From a virus (Duplodnaviria; Caudoviricetes), in the IMG/VR virus record IMGVR_UViG_3300016670_000048, positions 22,181 through 86,180 of that record: a DNA stretch of 64,000 nt; one strand, written 5' to 3'. The notes beneath the pieces were generated by a model. It saw only the letters and a list, made by a program, of their open reading frames with translations, was not told the origin of the DNA and searched no databases. The translations under genes and the position numbers were made by a program. This document shows, in pieces, positions 24,933-43,787 of the stretch (its first letter is position 1; the number at the start of each line of letters is the position of its first letter).

Positions 24933-26007
24933 TTATTGTTTCACTGGGAATTGAACATTCACTTGATCAAAAGATTGAACAAACATATTTGCAACAGCTT
25001 CACCAATTGCTTGCGCTTGTGCATTAGCATCCATACCTTGCAGAGTAGACCCATCAACATTTACAACTATATCAATTTGATTGCTGTTGTTTGTCACAAT
25101 ACCCATAGCCTTATCATCGGCTGCGGCCTTAGCCATTTCAGCCTGTTGGTCATCATAGCCAGCAGCATCTTGGTAATATCGCGAGGTTGGATCTTCATAG
25201 ACAGCCCTGCCACGTTCCTTAGCCTTAGCTAAATTGAAACCTGTGTTGTTTATAATATCCCCAACAACAGCAGCAGGTGATGGATACTTCCAACCAAACA
25301 AATTGGCTTCTTCAGTGGAGCTATTATTTGTCTCGGTGGTTGGTAGATTACCACTTTTCCATCTTTGGAATTCACCAATTGCATTAAGTATAGCGGCAAG
25401 TTCTTTAGTTGTGGCTTGGAGGGTTGGAAGAAATTCACCAAACAGATTAGTAGGGTTCAGTGCAGACATTTGCTCCCACAGAGTCTTAATGTCTTGCCAA
25501 TCTTTTACTAACTGTGATGTTTTGCCTATTCCCAACCAATCTGCTACAAGGCTATCTTTTCCCTCAAGTGCTCTGATAAAAGACTGAGGGAAAAGAAGTA
25601 GATCGTCTGCCCATTTTGTAGCATCATTGAATCCCTCAGCGAGTGTACGAATGAGGCTTCCACTCTCACTCAAACCGGCATTCAAAGTCCTGAAGATTCT
25701 TGCAAAGCCTTCTTCTACGCCTGAGTTAGAGGCGAGAACAGCCATGTCATTTACAGAGTTTTGATAACGAGCTTGTTCAGCCTGAGAGGCTTGGCTTGCG
25801 GATGCCAAGGCACCCCCTGCATTAGCCCTTTGAGATGCGGCAGCACCGGCATAGGTCAGAATGTCGCTAGTTACCTTACCCTTCTTCATATCAGCTAAAA
25901 GCTGTTGAATAGCATCTGCACCAGTTTTATTACCGCCAATCTTAGCTTGATACGCCTGTGCAAACAGGGCTGTACCACCGGGCAATGCCTCCGCGATTTG
26001 TCCTGTA
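24933..26007 (-). CDS. tape measure protein, exon 2
   Basis: Resumes t|ACA GGA CAA ATC GCG GAG GCA TTG CCC GGT (TGQIAEALPG), continuing the conserved tape-measure motif. Confidence 0.9.
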
Positions 26008-26742
26008 CTTTATATTCAAGCAGAGACGCTACTCTCTGCCCCGTTCACTTATGAACTGCTATAACTCTCGCTATAGAATAGACTATATCTTAGTGTTTTG
26101 TAGGTAATTTATAGCATTGTGTAAAATATCTTGGCAATCTTTCGCGTGACCAATAATAAGATTACAACTATTGCAAAGAAGACCCCTGACCTTGCCCGTT
26201 TCATGGCAATGATCAATATTTAATCCATAGTAGATATTTCTACCATTTCTACAAATAATTTCGTGTTTACCACAAATCTTACAGCAATCGTCTTGTAAGA
26301 TTCTCATCTGATCATAATAAGGTTTATCTATACCGACAAACTTCAGTTTAATTTTTAAAGAAGCGCACTCAAAACAAACAGTGTTGTACTTTAAAAGATC
26401 AGTGTCTTGGTAATTTTCACGGTCTTTTCTCTTGGCGAACTTAACAATTTCAAGTTCTCCTTTGCAATACGTACAAATTTTATACAATTAACACCCCTCC
26501 TGTTTCGGCTGTGCTTACAGCCTACTCTACTCCGTTCCACATCTCTGTGCCGTTTCGATAGTCGTTGAACGTTCCCTTTTGGGCTTCGCTGCTGATTTTC
26601 CAAAATAGTTGTTTTCAAACATTCACGCTTGAACCATATATTCTACTTAGGTTCTACGTTGTAGTCAACTATTAATAAGGACTTTCCAGCAATTAAGGAG
26701 GTAAATTTTTCTACGTATTTCTACGCAGCGAGCCTAATATTA
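26008..26742 (-). mobile_element. group I self-splicing intron (735 nt, phage IA2-like) in tape measure gene
   Basis: P AAUUGCUGGAAA, Q AAUCAGCAG, R GUUCAACGACUA, S AAGAUAUAGUCU. P1 GAGCU/GGCUC with U.G at the 5' splice site, terminal omega-G, P9 hairpins. Removal restores the reading frame. Confidence 0.95.
26083..26487 (-). CDS. intron-encoded homing endonuclease, endonuclease VII family
   Basis: QDDCCKICG...IDHCHETGKVRGLLCNSCNLIIG; located in P8 loop. Confidence 0.92.
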   Translation of the reverse strand: MYKICTYCKGELEIVKFAKRKDRENYQDTDLLKYNTVCFECASLKIKLKFVGIDKPYYDQMRILQDDCCKICGKHEIICRNGRNIYYGLNIDHCHETGKVRGLLCNSCNLIIGHAKDCQDILHNAINYLQNTKI

Positions 26743-27545
26743 AGCTCTTCACTCATAAGCTTTCCTTTACCAGCAACTTGTGAAAGTGCTCGGAAAAGTC
26801 TGTTCTGAGTAGTTTTGTCTAGCTTATTCACCCGTGCCAATTCAGCAAAACCAGAGAATACTTTCTGACTTTCTTTCAGTCCAATACCTGAACCAGTAAG
26901 ACCGGAGATTAGTTTGTTGTAATCTTGAGAAGCATCTAGGTAGTTAAAACCAATCCTCTGCCCTTCATTCTTAAGGTATTGGAAGGAGTCTTTACCTTGT
27001 TGCTCTGTACCACCAGCTTGTTGTACAACAGCAGTGGATTGCAATTCAGCAGATACCACTTGTTGGTTTTTACGATTCAATGCAGCCAAACCATAAGCAC
27101 CAAATCCTAATGCTAAGCCACCACCAAGCAAGCCTCCCATACCACCAAATACCGCACCGCCTCTTGCAGCCCTACTTCCGGGGACAGGTACAGGGACCGG
27201 TGGATGAGGACCCCCACCGGGAGGCAAAGGTGGGCCGGGTGGTGGAACTGGCAGCCTACGAGCAGCACGTAACAAAGCTGCTAACAAATTCCTATCATTA
27301 ACAACAAACCTAGATATCTCAAAGGCAACTTTAGGGCTTGCTGCATCGAGTGCAGTTCCAAGAGTCTTTGTAAGCTTAGCTTGGTCCACTGTAAAACCAG
27401 TAATATTTAGGACAATAGGTTTACCAGCAATCTTACCAAACTTTAAGATTCTAGCTTCCAATCGACTTAATATAGTATCAACACGCTTGACACTTGTCTG
27501 GTCAATGTGCATACCGATGGAAGCGAAGTATTTCGCTATATTCAA
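26743..27545 (-). CDS. tape measure protein, exon 1
   Basis: Tape-measure N-terminal motif RALSQVAGKGKLMSEEL; 803 nt ending in codon phase 2. Confidence 0.9.
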
Positions 27546-28160: not shown

Positions 28161-28658
28161 TTAAAACAAGCCCTCAACGAAGTTTGTAGCTTCTTTTAAG
28201 GCGCCATCAAACAATGAAGTGCTAGGTCTGGAGTTACCGTAAACCTTGAAAGTATCAGTTGTTTGACAAAAGATTTCCCAGTTTCTATACTCAAACTGAC
28301 CAGAGAAGGTAACTGAAGGATAACCAGTAATAAAAGCTTCGTTGGAGTTGAATACAGAGCGTCCTGAGTTATCTTTGAGTGTTAGAGCAATCCTTGCAGT
28401 TCCTTCTTCTAGATCAAGCTCATGAATGTATGATAATACATCATTACTCTGCGATGACTGAAGAATGGGGAAAGTAAGTGTTGCAGAAGTGTCACGATTT
28501 ACTACACGTGTATTTTTACCACGGATACCCCGGATGGGAGTAAAACCTTTTGAAGATCTTGTAATACTAATTGACTGCCAACCAGTAACTTGATATCCAC
28601 CTATGATTAAAACTACATCTTTTGGGCTGTATGTTTTCACATCAAAAGTATTAGCCAT
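28161..28658 (-). CDS. tail tube-like protein (DUF3277 family), copy 3
   Basis: TYSPKDVVLIIGG, LTLKDNSG. Confidence 0.8.
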   Translation of the reverse strand: MANTFDVKTYSPKDVVLIIGGYQVTGWQSISITRSSKGFTPIRGIRGKNTRVVNRDTSATLTFPILQSSQSNDVLSYIHELDLEEGTARIALTLKDNSGRSVFNSNEAFITGYPSVTFSGQFEYRNWEIFCQTTDTFKVYGNSRPSTSLFDGALKEATNFVEGLF

Positions 28659-29161
28659 TAGATAATACCTTCAATGGTTGGTATGGCTGAAACTGCAAGG
28701 TTAACAAGGCTTTCAAGGATAGATGAGGCATCCCCATTACCACCAATGTTGATGACTGCTTGAGATGATCTTAGTACCCAAGTTCGACTATCAAAGTTAT
28801 TGCTTTTAACAATAGACGCTGGAGATTCAATCCACGTAGTGGTTGAGAAGAACATGTCACTACCGCTTGAATCACGCACCATCAGTGGAAATTTACCACG
28901 CTGGGTTATTTCATCTAACTGCCAGAACTTTGTTAACACATCATTTGAATCACTGCCGCTATAAAGAGTCAACGTAATTGTGTAAGTTTGGTCATTGTTA
29001 TAAAGACGTGCTACAGTTCCATCTGGAGTTCTGGTTGAGCTGAATGGCACTATATCCTTTCTTACTTCTAGGAAAGTTCCATCTACAAAACCAGATATTG
29101 GAAGTATCCCACCAATAAGAACTGTAACTTGTTCTGGAATATAAGTAGCTAATTGAGTCAT
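28658..29161 (-). CDS. tail tube-like protein (DUF3277 family), copy 2
   Basis: TYIPEQVTVLIGG, SNDVL, VRDSSG. Confidence 0.8.
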   Translation of the reverse strand: MTQLATYIPEQVTVLIGGILPISGFVDGTFLEVRKDIVPFSSTRTPDGTVARLYNNDQTYTITLTLYSGSDSNDVLTKFWQLDEITQRGKFPLMVRDSSGSDMFFSTTTWIESPASIVKSNNFDSRTWVLRSSQAVINIGGNGDASSILESLVNLAVSAIPTIEGII

Positions 29162-29212
29162 TAAATATTCCTTGGTGGAAAGAGGGTAAAGTCACTACCC
29201 TCGTATTATTGC

Positions 29213-29734
29213 TTACAACTGCCAACGAGTAGGAACTTCAGCACCAAGGGCTTCCATAGCTGCCACTTCTGCGGAGTCGAACCGGGTATTACTGCCTACA
29301 TTATAACTCAGACTTACAGCTTGCAGTACCCAATCACGGGTCTCAGTGGTACTGGACAAAGTAGTGTCAGGAACTGTTGCTACAAAAGCTTGATTGCTGG
29401 AGAACAAAGTTGTACCACTGTTATCTTTTGCGGTAAGTGCAACCACCCAATTATCAGAATCGTCTTCTTCATCGGCGCGTTGCAAAGCTTGCAACACAGC
29501 ATTAGATGGACTAAATTGATGGAGTGTTAGTGTAATAGTCGCAGCTTTATTACGCCGCTTCACACGGCCTGCTGACAAGTCACTTCCTACGTAAAGCTCT
29601 GAAGCGGGTGTAATGCGACTAACATTTAAAAAGGTGCCATCTGCATACCCTTGAATAGTATGAACAAACTCACCTTTACTCAGAACAATTACAACAGACT
29701 CTGGGCTATAGTTACCTAAGAGAGCATCTGCCAT
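29213..29734 (-). CDS. tail tube protein (DUF3277 family)
   Basis: NYSPESV, SPSNAVL, AKDNSG, RDWVL; first tube-like gene after sheath. Confidence 0.85.
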   Translation of the reverse strand: MADALLGNYSPESVVIVLSKGEFVHTIQGYADGTFLNVSRITPASELYVGSDLSAGRVKRRNKAATITLTLHQFSPSNAVLQALQRADEEDDSDNWVVALTAKDNSGTTLFSSNQAFVATVPDTTLSSTTETRDWVLQAVSLSYNVGSNTRFDSAEVAAMEALGAEVPTRWQL

Positions 29735-30547
29735 TTAAACCTCTATATTTTCATTAATTTTATAAGAAAATCTAGGGTCTTTATTTTTAAGTCCTCTAGA
29801 TATTGTGCATGCCGAATAATTTGAAAACTTTCCGGCCAGTTTGATCGAATCATAAAGTACATCATCTACATATACAGCTTTTGAATTTGGGCAAAGCTTA
29901 CCGGTTTTCCCAGTTGTTGGGTGGTCTAAACCACAAGTTTCAGAGTTACCTTGTTGTTCAATAAAGCCGTCGTATATTCTTTTTCTTAGTGTGGGTATAG
30001 TCTTACTTAATATATAAGAGGCAGTTTCAAAGTTATTAAACCAAAACCCTGCGACATAGACTGGAGCATTAGCCGGATTCTTAACTCTGTTCTTACTAAT
30101 GAACTCACCAGCACGACCTTCCCTAAGCATTCTATAGAGCATGCCTTTGGATATTGAAATGTGCTTTAGACAAGTTCTGGCGTTCGGAAACCAGAATCCC
30201 ATAACAAACAAGGGAGTATCATCACTCCTATTTGAAATTTTATGTCCTGATCCACCTTCTCCACCAGCTCTAATATTATAGCCATTGTTTATAGAATCGT
30301 AAGCAACAATGGCCTTCTTTTCCAAGTCGATAATATATTCACGAGAACCTTCACAAAGAATTATAAACTCAAAATTTTCAGGCCCGTATTTATCAATAGC
30401 CAACTTAATAATAGAAATAGTCTTTTTAGATCTATGATTGAAATGTTGATATTTTCGTCTTTCAACGTCACCAGACATCCCAATATAAACTTTATCATTG
30501 ACACTATTTACAATTTTATAAAGATAGTAAGATTTAAAAGAATTCAT
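29735..30547 (-). CDS. GIY-YIG homing endonuclease (Seg-like)
   Basis: YYLYKIVNSVNDKVYIG...R...H, GYNIRAGGEG; NUMOD-like repeats. Confidence 0.92.
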   Translation of the reverse strand: MNSFKSYYLYKIVNSVNDKVYIGMSGDVERRKYQHFNHRSKKTISIIKLAIDKYGPENFEFIILCEGSREYIIDLEKKAIVAYDSINNGYNIRAGGEGGSGHKISNRSDDTPLFVMGFWFPNARTCLKHISISKGMLYRMLREGRAGEFISKNRVKNPANAPVYVAGFWFNNFETASYILSKTIPTLRKRIYDGFIEQQGNSETCGLDHPTTGKTGKLCPNSKAVYVDDVLYDSIKLAGKFSNYSACTISRGLKNKDPRFSYKINENIEV

Positions 30548-30607: not shown

Positions 30608-31891
30608 TCACACAGCAAGATACCCGTTGATGATAACCTTACGGATACTGCCAGCCAATCGTACACGGAACTGGAATACGCCAGCAGTACGAAGGGCACG
30701 AAGGTTAGCCGGAATTTCCAGTACATCGGGAACGGTCACGCTCCAACCACGATCAATTGCACCATTAGCTTCAGCTTGAGATAGTACAGAACGAATTTCG
30801 TTTTCAATGATAACCAAACCAGCGTTAGTCATCGGAACCTTCAAGGTATTAACTAGGCGGAAGTAAATTTGTTCCTGAAGTCGGGCATAAAGCCAGTCCT
30901 CGATGATCACTTGGTCAATCGGAGTACCATCAAACATGTTACCGTCTTGAAAGACGTTTACACCACCAACAGTGGTGTACATGTTCATATTTTTAGCACG
31001 AAGATTTACACGAGCAGTGTCATTCAGCTTGCTTACAGTTGCACCAACACCACGCTTGAAGTCCCAATCATTAGAACCCGGAGTGTAAGCCAATTGACTA
31101 CCCATCCAAACCGCTTCTGGATATTCAGCATCAGCAGTGGGTAAGTAAACACCGTAAGTACGGCCAGCACTAATGGAATCAAGAATGTAGGCAATGTCAG
31201 TAGTACCATTGGTGGGAACTACAGTATCTTGACTAGAAGTACCAAAGATCTTACGACGTGCTTGAATAGCCGCACTAAGGGCTTGTACATCAGCAGGGGT
31301 GTGTGTTTCGGTTACCAGAGCATACCAGACGTCATTATCATCACTTACCGCTGTCAATGAATCTGCCCAAGTTTCAACAGGTGCTGCGTTCACACCTACA
31401 AGATTGGCAGAAGCTCTCACACTCCAAGGGGTCCCTACAACAGTTGGGGCAACAATAAGAGTGGATGTACCACTGACGGTGATGCCCGTAGGAGTACCAA
31501 TCGCTGCTTTCAGGCCGGTTACAATAGTAGTGGCAGTTGCACCGACACCGGACGTAAAGGAATAAAGAACTCCGTTAACAGTAGCCGTGTACACCGTGCT
31601 ATCAGCAACTGTTGGTGTAAAAGTTACGCTGTTAACTTGACGACGACCAACCACGATACTTGGAGGAACGGCACCAACAGTTGACTGACCGAACAGTTTT
31701 TGGGCAATGACATACACTTTATCAGTAGAACTGAAGTCGTCAGTAACAGCATCAAAGTCTGTATAAGTGCGTGTACGTTCAGAGAAGTTTGTAAAGGCTG
31801 CAAGAATCAGAGGAATCTGAAAACTGGCAGTTGCCACTGGAGTAGACTCACGGGTCAGCGTGATTTGGATAATCTGGTCAAGCTCGCTCAT
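30608..31891 (-). CDS. tail sheath protein (DUF3383 family)
   Basis: FQIPLIL, DWLYARLQEQI, KVPMTNAG. Confidence 0.92.
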   Translation of the reverse strand: MSELDQIIQITLTRESTPVATASFQIPLILAAFTNFSERTRTYTDFDAVTDDFSSTDKVYVIAQKLFGQSTVGAVPPSIVVGRRQVNSVTFTPTVADSTVYTATVNGVLYSFTSGVGATATTIVTGLKAAIGTPTGITVSGTSTLIVAPTVVGTPWSVRASANLVGVNAAPVETWADSLTAVSDDNDVWYALVTETHTPADVQALSAAIQARRKIFGTSSQDTVVPTNGTTDIAYILDSISAGRTYGVYLPTADAEYPEAVWMGSQLAYTPGSNDWDFKRGVGATVSKLNDTARVNLRAKNMNMYTTVGGVNVFQDGNMFDGTPIDQVIIEDWLYARLQEQIYFRLVNTLKVPMTNAGLVIIENEIRSVLSQAEANGAIDRGWSVTVPDVLEIPANLRALRTAGVFQFRVRLAGSIRKVIINGYLAV

Positions 31892-39245: not shown

Positions 39246-40754
39246 TTAAAAGCTGAATTCATTTGATTTTGTCATGCTGGGCATGGAGAAGGTTGGGACT
39301 TGGAATTTCTGTGCTAGTTGCATATAACCAAGAGAACAACAATCGACCATATCGTCGTGGCCCAGTTCGCCGCTTTTCCGGGTCCCATCAAAATTCTCTA
39401 ACTCCTTGTAAAAGAAATCGTTAGAGTTTGTGATGTTGTTCCAAAGGTCGTTTGCACAGTTGGTTACGATGGAAACAACACCTAATTCAACAGAAGCTGC
39501 GAAAGGTCTGAACGAATCCAACTTACCAGCAGGAGAGCGCCTAACTTTAGCAACAATTCCCATTTCATTAAGAGACTTGGCAATCATACTAGTTGCTGCT
39601 TTAGCTGCGGCGTTCGGATCTTCAGGAAGAATAACTTCTACAGCCCTACCATCTCTTTCCGAGTTCTCAACGATGTGTTTTACCCAATTACCAAAAGTAA
39701 TTCGTGTCCTTGTAATATCAAGGATTACATAATCACCGGTCTTGAGTTTACCCATCTTCACAGAAGCAAAGTAGTCGGGAGACCTGTTTTGATCATGGGG
39801 AAGAGTGCCTGCAAAATCGTAAGCTCGAACAATTCTTACGAAGTCTGTATGAGGTGGGGGTGCAGTCAATTCTATTAAATCTGCCCGGTCAAAGTACGAC
39901 GAATTATCGGGCCTTGCGAACCAATTGCCCCATCTAAGCCTTTCACAATCTAGCTTAGGAAGAGCTTCCAAATTTTTCTTGTAGCTGGGATTGGACAAAT
40001 TTAACGGTGGGTTATCTTCAATTGTACCAAAGAGACCTTGAAAGCTAATTGGTTCTATTTGGTCTTTATGATCAGCAGGTAGATCTGGATTGCCGTACTT
40101 TTCAATCATCTCTTCTCTGGTATCTCCCCAGACAAGATCACCATTGATTCGGAGCAAAAATCTGATTACACCATTTTTCTCTGGGTCAGGTCGACCGGCC
40201 AATGGGTGATGTTCGGGGTAGAGCCACCACATGGCATACTTAAGCACCCAACTCGCGTTGTCTGGGTTACACGACCACCACATCGAGTGTATATTATCTG
40301 CATCAGAACGGAGACGTGACCAGAGCCACCACAATTGTTCTTCATTTTCTGCGTGAGTTACCTCATCATAGAAAATGTTTGAAATTTGAATACCCTGATA
40401 TTTCTTAGCTGCGTTATCATTCTCGTAGTGAGAAAAGCTAACTTCCGCCCCGCTAGAAAAGACCAGTTTTTGATCTTTAAGACGAATCTTTAAATTGGGA
40501 TCAAACTGGCTATAAAGTTTCACAGCTTCTTGGAACAAACCACCAGAAGCCATGATTGCACTAGAGTTCTTTCGAATACAATAAGCTTTATAATTTGGAT
40601 CGTGGGCAAAGCGGAGGTGACGCATTAATCCTACGTAACTCTTTGAACTTCCTGCTGCGCCGCCCACCAAAATAATCTGGGCGTCGGAGTTGAGGTATTT
40701 TTGCTGGAACTCCGACGCTGGGCCTATAACAACTTCATCTGGTTTTAGTTTCAA
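39246..40754 (-). CDS. terminase large subunit
   Basis: Walker A GGAAGSSKS, Walker B IFYDE, CNPD, HDDMVD nuclease motif. Confidence 0.95.
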   Translation of the reverse strand: MKLKPDEVVIGPASEFQQKYLNSDAQIILVGGAAGSSKSYVGLMRHLRFAHDPNYKAYCIRKNSSAIMASGGLFQEAVKLYSQFDPNLKIRLKDQKLVFSSGAEVSFSHYENDNAAKKYQGIQISNIFYDEVTHAENEEQLWWLWSRLRSDADNIHSMWWSCNPDNASWVLKYAMWWLYPEHHPLAGRPDPEKNGVIRFLLRINGDLVWGDTREEMIEKYGNPDLPADHKDQIEPISFQGLFGTIEDNPPLNLSNPSYKKNLEALPKLDCERLRWGNWFARPDNSSYFDRADLIELTAPPPHTDFVRIVRAYDFAGTLPHDQNRSPDYFASVKMGKLKTGDYVILDITRTRITFGNWVKHIVENSERDGRAVEVILPEDPNAAAKAATSMIAKSLNEMGIVAKVRRSPAGKLDSFRPFAASVELGVVSIVTNCANDLWNNITNSNDFFYKELENFDGTRKSGELGHDDMVDCCSLGYMQLAQKFQVPTFSMPSMTKSNEFSF

Positions 40755-41645
40755 TTAACTTCCCTCACTATGAAATTCCACCCACTCCTTATCGTAATGA
40801 GGAATCCAATTTTCTCGGAACATTTCAACTAATTTATCAAAATGAAATCTAGGGTATTCTACATTTTCTAACTTAGAACAAATAGTGGCAAAAGAATAGG
40901 CTTTTGGCTTATCGTTCTCAATCCAGATATTGTAATAATTTGCGGCCATTGCCCATACCCTTGCTCGGGCTGGTCTTGCTAAGGCTGCACTTTTCTGCCA
41001 AGGTTTTAAGGATTTCTGGTACTCAGACAATTGAGCTTTTTGCTCTTCTGAAATAACCTTACCTATCTGAGCCAACCTAGATTTTTCAACAGCTTCTGGC
41101 GATCTTTTCTTACCTCGAAAAGCATCTCCAATCTTCTTTCTGGCAGACTCTGGAACTGTCCAACCGGAAGCAATTAGTTCTTGTCGCTTTGCACTTATCT
41201 TACTTTTAGTCTCTTCAGAAACTTTATGACCCATCATTTTCTGCCTACCTTTTTCGATAGACTCTGTTGTTCTTTTATGACCAGTTAGTGTTTGACGAAT
41301 CTTCTCTTTTGTTTCTTCAGAGACAACCCTATTACTCATAAACTCTGCTTTAGCAATCTTAGCTTTCTCAACTTCACGAGAAGTAAGAATACCTTTATGA
41401 GAATTTACAGTGCGTGCATAAGCCCACATCAAACTATAGTTATCAGGATTAGCTTTCCACAAAAGACGATGTGCAATCACATGCTCTCTAGGGGTAAACA
41501 GAACAAAGTTGGAATTTTTATCAGAACCACCGAGACATTTGGGGATAATGTGGTGTTTTTCAAAATAACCATCTAAGACTTTCTTATCTAAACCTCTAGC
41601 AACACACTTATCAACTAGAGCATTATAAATTTTCTGATAATTCAA
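40755..41645 (-). CDS. HNH homing endonuclease with NUMOD3 repeats
   Basis: EKHHIIPKCLGGSD...N...REHVIAHRLL; SEETKxKI repeats. Confidence 0.92.
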   Translation of the reverse strand: MNYQKIYNALVDKCVARGLDKKVLDGYFEKHHIIPKCLGGSDKNSNFVLFTPREHVIAHRLLWKANPDNYSLMWAYARTVNSHKGILTSREVEKAKIAKAEFMSNRVVSEETKEKIRQTLTGHKRTTESIEKGRQKMMGHKVSEETKSKISAKRQELIASGWTVPESARKKIGDAFRGKKRSPEAVEKSRLAQIGKVISEEQKAQLSEYQKSLKPWQKSAALARPARARVWAMAANYYNIWIENDKPKAYSFATICSKLENVEYPRFHFDKLVEMFRENWIPHYDKEWVEFHSEGS

Positions 41646-41647
41646 AC

Positions 41648-42289
41648 TTAAACACTCCCAAACTGAATCTTCATCCGTTCGGGAATTGCTTGCACTACCA
41701 ATTCTTTATAGCGATTTCGATCACCTTCGAACAAGAAGTTTTCTTCAATTGTCCCAGTGATATGTTTTACAGAATCACAGAAGCCAACAACACGACCATT
41801 AACTTTATCCAAAAGATTAGCTTTATTAGCCCAAGAGTCATCTTTCTCAAGATTCTCAATTGAGTCGATAACAACCATCTGCTTGGCTCGGAACAAATGA
41901 GCTAGTACAAAGTCTTTTGAAATGTTGGCATCGAACAGCATCAAGTCACGAGCAAGACCTTGGGTCTTTGCAATACAGTTATCACCACATGCAATAAACT
42001 TAATCTTTGAACCATTCCTCAATGTTGCAATTGCAGACTTTTCAGAGTAGCGAATATCTGAACCAAACATTTTTAGCATGTATTCTTTAACACTGCCAGC
42101 ACGATTAATATGAAACCATGTTGGAACTAAGAATGTCACATTGATATCTTGGTTATCAGAAGCTACTTGCCAAGCTTTCATAAGCAAGGCTGTAGTTGCA
42201 CCTGCTCCGGGCTCTGCTGTAATAACCGTGAGCTTCTCGTTTGATTCAAGAAGCTCTTTCTGCATCTTTGTTGCAAATACAACTGACAT
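41648..42289 (-). CDS. degenerate terminase-ATPase paralog
   Basis: Colinear with TerL N-terminal domain but Walker A is GAGAT and Walker B is LFDA. Confidence 0.7.
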   Translation of the reverse strand: MSVVFATKMQKELLESNEKLTVITAEPGAGATTALLMKAWQVASDNQDINVTFLVPTWFHINRAGSVKEYMLKMFGSDIRYSEKSAIATLRNGSKIKFIACGDNCIAKTQGLARDLMLFDANISKDFVLAHLFRAKQMVVIDSIENLEKDDSWANKANLLDKVNGRVVGFCDSVKHITGTIEENFLFEGDRNRYKELVVQAIPERMKIQFGSV

Positions 42290-43710: not shown

Positions 43711-43787
43711 TGGTGGGTCCATCCAGACTTGAACTGGAAATCAACGAATTATGAGTTCGCTGCATTAACCAATTATGCTACAGACCC
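43711..43787 (-). tRNA. tRNA with CAT anticodon (Ile2 or elongator Met), CCA encoded
   Basis: GGGTCTG/TGGACCC acceptor, CTCATAA loop, GTTCAAG T-loop, ACCA end. G1-C72 and no GGG/CCC anticodon stem, so not an initiator. Confidence 0.93.

Follow-up and report, generated by a model that had tools for sequence, protein, structure and literature searches.

The td, nrdB and nrdD (sunY) genes of phage T4, which function in nucleotide metabolism, contain group I introns that carry the endonucleases I-TevI, I-TevII and I-TevIII and are mobile by homing. The tape-measure gene has been called "frequently interrupted" (Barth et al. 2023, PMC10448857). In prophages of the Bacillus cereus group, tape-measure introns of types IA1 and IA2 are found at three sites (TMP-IVS1, TMP-IVS2 and TMP-IVS3); related as well as unrelated introns share one site, and the guides are fitted to the exon sequence (Tourasse and Kolsto 2008, PMC2504315). 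[quoted passage not shown] The middle ICP1 intron usually carries an HNH-3 nuclease and the nuclease content varies between isolates; in ICP1 M4 it varies while the splice sites are fixed (PMC10448857).

The locus described here is found in a stretch of 64,000 nucleotides (the window, i.e. the whole of the DNA analyzed), which is part of an IMG/VR record of 86,180 bp with a completeness rating of 98%. In the major capsid protein, identity is 52% with Pseudomonas phage vB_PsaM_M1 and about 35% with Felix-O1-like coliphages. As judged from these identities, the source phage is an uncultured myovirus of about 86 kb that belongs to the broad group of vB_PsaM_M1 and the Felix-O1-like phages. Plant, soil, root and wastewater samples yielded sequencing runs with partial matches to the stretch, none of which covers half of it. 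The order of genes on the minus strand is tail sheath, a GIY-YIG nuclease, three tube-like proteins, two small chaperone-like proteins, open reading frames of 274, 134 and 350 aa, and baseplate. It is very probable that the tape-measure gene of this phage is interrupted by a mobile group I intron and that splicing would be required for the full-length protein. Positions of the features are given in Table 1.

Table 1. Positions of the tape-measure exons, the intron and its parts, and related features (window numbering unless a locus is named)
Feature	Position	Strand	Description and basis
Tail sheath gene	31891..30608	-	
Tape measure exon 1	26743..27545	-	267 codons and CU of the junction Leu codon; Pfam TMP_3, PHROG 5255
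Tape measure exon 2	24933..26007	-	U of the Leu codon, 357 codons and stop; PHROG 5255, homolog alignment
Group I intron	26008..26742	-	735 nt, IA-like; two RF00028 pieces, exact excision restores the frame
P1	26730..26747	-	exon GAGCU (26747..26743) and guide GGCUC (26734..26730); U.G at splice site
P2	26711..26728	-	7 bp, CUGCGUA-GAAA-UACGUAG, GAAA loop
P3 5' strand, CCUCCU	26696..26701	-	pairs with 26501..26496
P4, P5, P5a extension and P6 domain (AAUUGCUGGAAA, AAUCAGCAG)	26570..26691	-	Rfam alignment; all pairs standard; in free-energy fold
J6/7 and P7 5' strand, UUCAAC-GACUA	26559..26569	-	P7 strand pairs with 26085..26081
P7.1 and P7.2 hairpins	26507..26549	-	between P7 and P3'; at 26549..26538 and 26522..26507; both in free-energy fold
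P3 3' strand, AGGAGG	26496..26501	-	doubles as Shine-Dalgarno sequence, 8 nt before nuclease start
Endonuclease VII-type (His-Me/HNH) ORF, 134 aa	26083..26487	-	in P8 loop; PF02945, PHROG families
P8 3' strand	26093..26102	-	pairs with 26494..26483; 10 of 10 standard; in free-energy fold
J8/7 and P7 3' strand (AAGAUAUAGUCU)	26080..26091	-	second Rfam piece, model positions 221-251
P9, P9.1 and P9.2 hairpins	26020..26076	-	nearly identical in L007, L008 and L153
Terminal (omega) G	26008	-	sequence
Sister intron copies with HNH_3 in P6	L007:4809-5909; L153:1-720		

A first-pass annotation of this DNA had proposed that two tape-measure ORFs are separated by an endonuclease gene, that removal of 735 nt restores SEEL-TGQIAE continuity in a protein of 625 aa, and that automated annotation would miss the full-length protein. 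All of this agrees with the present analysis. The 134-aa ORF with a PF02945 domain lies between the 274-aa and 350-aa ORFs. Exon 1 displays the Pfam TMP_3 domain (PF20155) at positions 14–115, with a score of 37.2 bits on its own against a cut-off of 41, and is 100% covered by uninterrupted homologs. PF20155 is present in all full-length tape-measure homologs, and PHROG tape-measure families match both exons. Identification as a tape-measure gene also fits the neighbouring genes for sheath, tube-like proteins, chaperone and baseplate hub. When position 26743 is joined to 26007 the frame is open over 625 codons plus the stop. The public protein cluster for the record is the 274-aa exon-1 ORF, i.e. 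the gene has been split by gene callers. A megablast search with the gene and a tblastn search with exon 2 gave no match in 50,697 phage records; the tape measure is therefore without a close cultured relative.

The last bases of exon 1 are ..GAAGAGCU at position 26743, and the intron is inserted after the second base of a Leu codon. The PHROG 5255 tape-measure profile spans positions 316–425 in exon 1 and restarts at 428 in exon 2, which leaves space for the junction Leu and the following Thr only. The junction sequence GKGKLMSEEL-TGQIAEALPGG aligns with 120 uninterrupted homologs (606–735 aa) without a gap within 10 residues, and the Leu is invariant. This block is the most conserved in the protein, with a mean identity of 93% compared with 64% overall. 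The U before the 5' cut, the G as last intron base and the restored frame together permit one boundary choice only.

The same region might alternatively be a gene that works in pieces without splicing, giving two polypeptides, one of 274 aa (..SEELNIRLAA) and one of 350 aa from a TTG codon at 25985. There are precedents for phage genes that are split and function as separate parts, e.g. nrdA of phage Aeh1; both half-ORFs are present as listed and there is a GGAGG sequence just upstream of the TTG. However, only 2 nt separate the GGAGG from the TTG, and the GGAGG is ordinary coding sequence (..AEALPGG) that is found equally in the intron-less homologs. Translation in pieces would also leave unexplained a complete co-varying fold and the presence of the U.G pair and the terminal G exactly at the boundaries that restore the frame. 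The likelihood of this arrangement appears exceedingly slight.

The intron begins with UAAUAUUAGGCUC and includes the guide GGCUC. The core elements AAUUGCUGGAAA, AAUCAGCAG, GUUCAACGACUA and AAGAUAUAGUCU are present, and the P3–P8 core has the P4/P6 and P3/P7 strands (elements P, Q, R and S) in the right order. The P1 pairing of GAGCU with GGCUC and its U.G at 26743, all four core elements, P2, the three P9 hairpins and the terminal G at 26008 were each located where the first-pass annotation had them. Group I intron models, a check it had put forward, were also applied. RF00028 aligns to the intron in two pieces that are parted only by the nuclease ORF. The first, at 26752..26492, has a score of 39.5 bits (E = 2.7e-8 in a 1.2-kb stretch and 1.4e-6 in the 64-kb window) and encompasses P1–P7 and P3'; the second, at 26091..26061, has a score of 18.4 bits and encompasses J8/7-P7'-P9. 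All core elements align with the model, i.e. P1-P2-P3-P4-P5-P6-J6/7-P7 and J8/7-P7'-P9. Each piece alone is below the gathering cut-off of 50 bits and matches only with an E-value threshold, and RF00028 with default filters gave no match over the whole record. The model does not include the 405-nt ORF, the long P5 extension or P7.1/P7.2. The intron is of subgroup IA, since P7.1/P7.2 are present, and would be IA2-like.

Sixteen helices were assigned by hand (P1, P2, P3, P4, P5, P5a, P6, P6a, P7, P7.1, P7.2, two segments of P8, P9, P9.1 and P9.2), and every one of the 77 pairs assigned inside the intron, from P2 to P9.2, is standard. The unconstrained minimum-energy fold of the sequence, with the ORF loop removed, displays 14 of the 16 helices including P1 (z = -5.2). 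It misses P7 and the 2-bp P6; P7 is unrecoverable by such a fold because it is part of the P3/P7 pseudoknot.

Comparison of four related copies shows at least 12 pairs in P1, P2, P3, P4, P7, P7.1, P7.2 and P8 that have changed on both sides and kept pairing, and no internal pair is broken. Between the window and locus L008 there are 21 differences in the ribozyme part, nine of which are in loops. Four pairs show double compensatory changes (one in P2, one in P3 and two in P7.2), two single-sided changes pass via G.U, and the one lost pair is the loop-closing pair of P9.1. The P3 sequence is CCCCUU/AGGGGG in L008 and CUUCUC/GGGAAG in L007; P7 reads GGCCA/UGGUC in L007 and L153 with pairing kept. 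Compensatory changes relative to the window are thus found in both P3 and P7 of L007. L007 and L153 differ from each other by eight double compensatory changes (P7.1, P7.2 and P8) with none broken. At P2, two positions change on both sides among four sequences, and a G-C pair of P1 is replaced by A-U in ICP1 (exon GAACU, guide GGUUC). For P1, P2, P4 and P5, the 5' parts of the introns of the window, L008 and L007 were aligned with that of the middle ICP1 intron. In these four sequences the assigned pairs of the helices are 98.8% paired and five pairs have changed on both sides, a number reached in 0 of 500 shuffles; with the partner slid by 1–3 columns, 30–42% are paired.

Intron-less alleles are found among relatives. 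No insert is found at the site in 32 of 34 related IMG/VR loci, which, with the 120 gapless proteins, completes the alignment with intron-less homologs that had been suggested as a check. The intron-less sequence around the site in locus L001 is ..GAAGAGCTTACAGG.., and inserts at the identical base are found in L008 (734 nt) and L007 (1101 nt). A search of IMG/VR and JGI metagenomes with the exact 3' motif detected L007 and L008 and, as the sole further copy, the partial L153. In addition, DNA contigs of two sequencing runs (X1 and X2) skip exactly the 735 nt, and in the X1 sample such an allele occurs alongside both ends of an L007-type intron.

The record derives from a metagenome assembly, and a chimeric contig with a foreign intron would produce a similar picture. 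However, L007, L008 and L153 are independent assemblies from other samples and have the insert at the same base, and a wastewater contig (X7) contains an intron and ORF that are about 98% identical to those of the window inside exons that are less than 90% identical. X7 is labelled "RNA-Seq" but is probably DNA. With these copies at hand, an assembly artefact is practically negligible as an explanation.

Near-identical introns are present in diverged phages. The ribozyme parts of the window and L008 have 93–94% identity, and the exons have 79% near the site and 60–74% overall. An intron-less soil contig of 87.6 kb (X2), when compared with window positions 24934–26967, displays 98% identity downstream of the site and 80% upstream; the homing site is therefore also the place of a recombination boundary. 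The patterns of L008, X7, X1 and X2 fit homing with co-conversion and with exchange at the nuclease site.

A census of truncated proteins was made from 93 clusters of exon-1-related proteins of 146–468 aa (E ≤ 1e-30). Fifty-seven clusters that consist of exon 1 only end at the site of the window intron, with ..SEEL followed by a few intron-encoded residues, e.g. NIRLAA, in which R-L represents the guide sequence. A further 26 clusters stop 18 nt downstream of this site, following ..TGQ(I/L)A, and five stop 9 nt upstream of it, following ..LMS. Uninterrupted forms of the tape measure number at least 356. The truncations end at three sites, and this lineage thus has a three-site intron hotspot at the motif ..GKxxLMSEELTGQIA.. 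(window positions 26700–26770).

It might be argued that the intron is a relic or depends on its host, i.e. that it does not self-splice efficiently and that the phage is defective or needs a helper protein. Catalysis is predicted from the sequence, and the Rfam score falls short of the gathering threshold. A decayed element is difficult to reconcile, however, with a ribozyme of 93–94% identity between exons of only about 60–79% and with helix changes all of which keep pairing, which indicates continuing selection on the fold. Many of the truncated clusters are on contigs of 85–93 kb, and with 57 public clusters ending at the window's site the interrupted form is common in apparently complete genomes of this size. 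Decay or host dependence is thus regarded as very unlikely.

RNA of the ligated exons was looked for in the runs and not found. Three short contigs came from the one true metatranscriptome (X20), all of which lie over the intron of a relative. One of these ends one base from the 5' splice site. Another, of 63 nt, joins the 3' end of the relative's intron (window positions 26011–26040) to its 5' end (window positions 26716–26741) with three letters between them. This single shallow contig may represent excised or circular intron RNA.

The 134-aa ORF in the intron displays the Pfam Endonuclease_7 domain (PF02945; E = 1.7e-17, 63.6 bits against a cut-off of 23.6) and matches several PHROG endonuclease VII families. 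Intact catalytic and zinc-binding motifs, DHCH..N..H and CxxC, are readable in the translation, and the ORF is a predicted homing endonuclease of the endonuclease VII/His-Me finger type. The closest cultured relatives, at about 38% identity, are free-standing genes in T7-like Klebsiella phages. The copy in L008 is 78% identical. In a large protein collection only two clusters have 78% or greater identity and further relatives are at 52%, so the nuclease is rare.

L007 and L153 have a short P8 hairpin, and a 240-aa HNH_3 nuclease is looped out of P6 instead. One and the same ribozyme, at a single site, is therefore found with two unrelated nucleases: HNH_3 in P6 (L007, L153 and ICP1) and the endonuclease VII type in P8 (window and L008). 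In the window, the UUG start codon of the nuclease is in the 5' strand of P8, the AGGAGG 8 nt upstream of it is the 3' strand of P3, and the UAG stop codon is in P7'. With the ribosome-binding site in P3, the start in P8 and the stop in P7, translation of the nuclease and folding of the ribozyme would be mutually exclusive. A switch between synthesis of the tape measure protein and synthesis of the nuclease is a conjecture. The combined proposal of one ribozyme lineage at one codon, two independent colonisations by nucleases and a built-in tape-measure/nuclease switch is doubtful when its parts are taken jointly.

Two other homing endonuclease genes are present in the window. A free-standing GIY-YIG gene of 270 aa at 29735–30547 (minus strand) is located between the sheath gene and the first of the three tube-like genes, and no intron signal was found around it. 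The tube-like genes at 28161–29734 (minus strand) are three tandem paralogs of 165–173 aa that match PHROG 280, a virion structural protein, at a place where a single tail tube gene is expected. An HNH gene of 296 aa at 40755–41645 (minus strand) adjoins the start of the large terminase gene (39246–40754), and an ATPase-like ORF of 213 aa is upstream of it at 41648–42289. A split of the terminase by this HNH gene was considered and rejected, as the terminase is of 502 aa and has its own Walker A motif; the 213-aa ORF was likewise rejected as a terminase half and is a separate protein. The HNH gene appears to be free-standing, and the terminase is unsplit. A single tRNA gene at 43714–43787 (minus strand, 63.4 bits) is the sole match in an Rfam scan of the window at gathering thresholds. 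Its anticodon is CAU (Met or Ile2 type) because the anticodon loop reads CUCAUAA.

Like the window intron, the T4 introns are of subgroup IA with P7.1/P7.2, have an ORF looped from a peripheral helix, and interrupt a conserved part of an essential gene. They differ in having GIY-YIG or other HNH-type nucleases, and their ORFs are in P6 or P9.1 and not in P8. The B. cereus tape-measure introns are also IA group I introns that occupy several sites in a tape-measure gene; however, they are found in siphovirus prophages of Gram-positive hosts, in tape measures of more than 1200 aa and at other insertion sites (PMC2504315).

The likeness to ICP1 is closer. Both tape measures are of the same TMP_3-type family and have the same conserved motif. 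A blastn search shows about 71% identity between the ribozyme core of the window and ICP1 over 175 nt, in the gap between an HNH gene and the C-terminal tape-measure ORF; this match corresponds to a different ICP1 tape-measure intron from the middle one. RF00028 matches the ICP1 tape-measure region in three pieces (77.9, 28.9 and 38.9 bits). From the ICP1 sequence (HQ641347) the 5' splice sites would be after ..AUGGCU, ..GAAGAACU and ..ACUGGGU, each with a downstream guide. The middle intron, after GAAGAACU, appears to be at the same codon position as GAAGAGCU in the window, and displays a matching guide sequence and a similar P2. The two flanking ICP1 sites would correspond to the upstream and downstream truncation sites of the window's lineage. 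Over its full length the nuclease of L007 shares 54% identity with ICP1 ORF80 (HNH_3). As in ICP1 M4, the nuclease content of the set formed by the window and L007 varies and the splice sites are fixed.

There are also differences. The window has one intron and ICP1 three in a row; the window nuclease is of the endonuclease VII type in P8 and that of ICP1 is of another family in P6. The phages are unrelated, one being a myovirus of about 86 kb from soil, plant or wastewater and the other a Vibrio phage. Splicing has been proven by experiment in ICP1 and is predicted for the window intron.

On the proposed mechanism, the late transcript of the tail genes would be made as a precursor in which the intron RNA folds and the guide GGCUC pairs with the exon end GAGCU. 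Free guanosine would then attack after the U, and the terminal G would direct ligation of the exons to give an mRNA for the 625-aa tape measure protein. During co-infection the nuclease encoded in the P8 loop would cut the intron-less alleles of related phages, and it is proposed that repair of the cut copies the intron in. We infer catalysis, in vivo splicing of the window's copy, and the activity and target of the nuclease.

The first-pass annotation had also implied that an intron in a tape-measure gene is novel. Its identification of a group I intron is sustained by the fold, the covariation, the junction and the intron-less alleles. That implication goes too far, because tape-measure genes are well recorded as places where phage group I introns frequently reside (PMC2504315, PMC10448857). 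The window intron is of a kind already known, and shown by experiment in the ICP1 relative (PMC10448857). The finding raises no new question. It is modestly interesting for the alternative nucleases in P6 and P8, for translation signals that overlap core helices and for the hotspot shared with ICP1.

For annotation, an essential tail gene has been called as two hypothetical proteins and an endonuclease, and the same is the case for at least 88 related public protein clusters. Since tail length is predicted from the length of the tape measure, such split calls mislead. A tape-measure stretch of about 30 nt is a three-site intron hotspot common to this lineage and the distant Vibrio phage ICP1. 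With the present locus, a lineage of uncultured soil, plant and wastewater myoviruses would join the phages in which tail assembly depends on RNA splicing.
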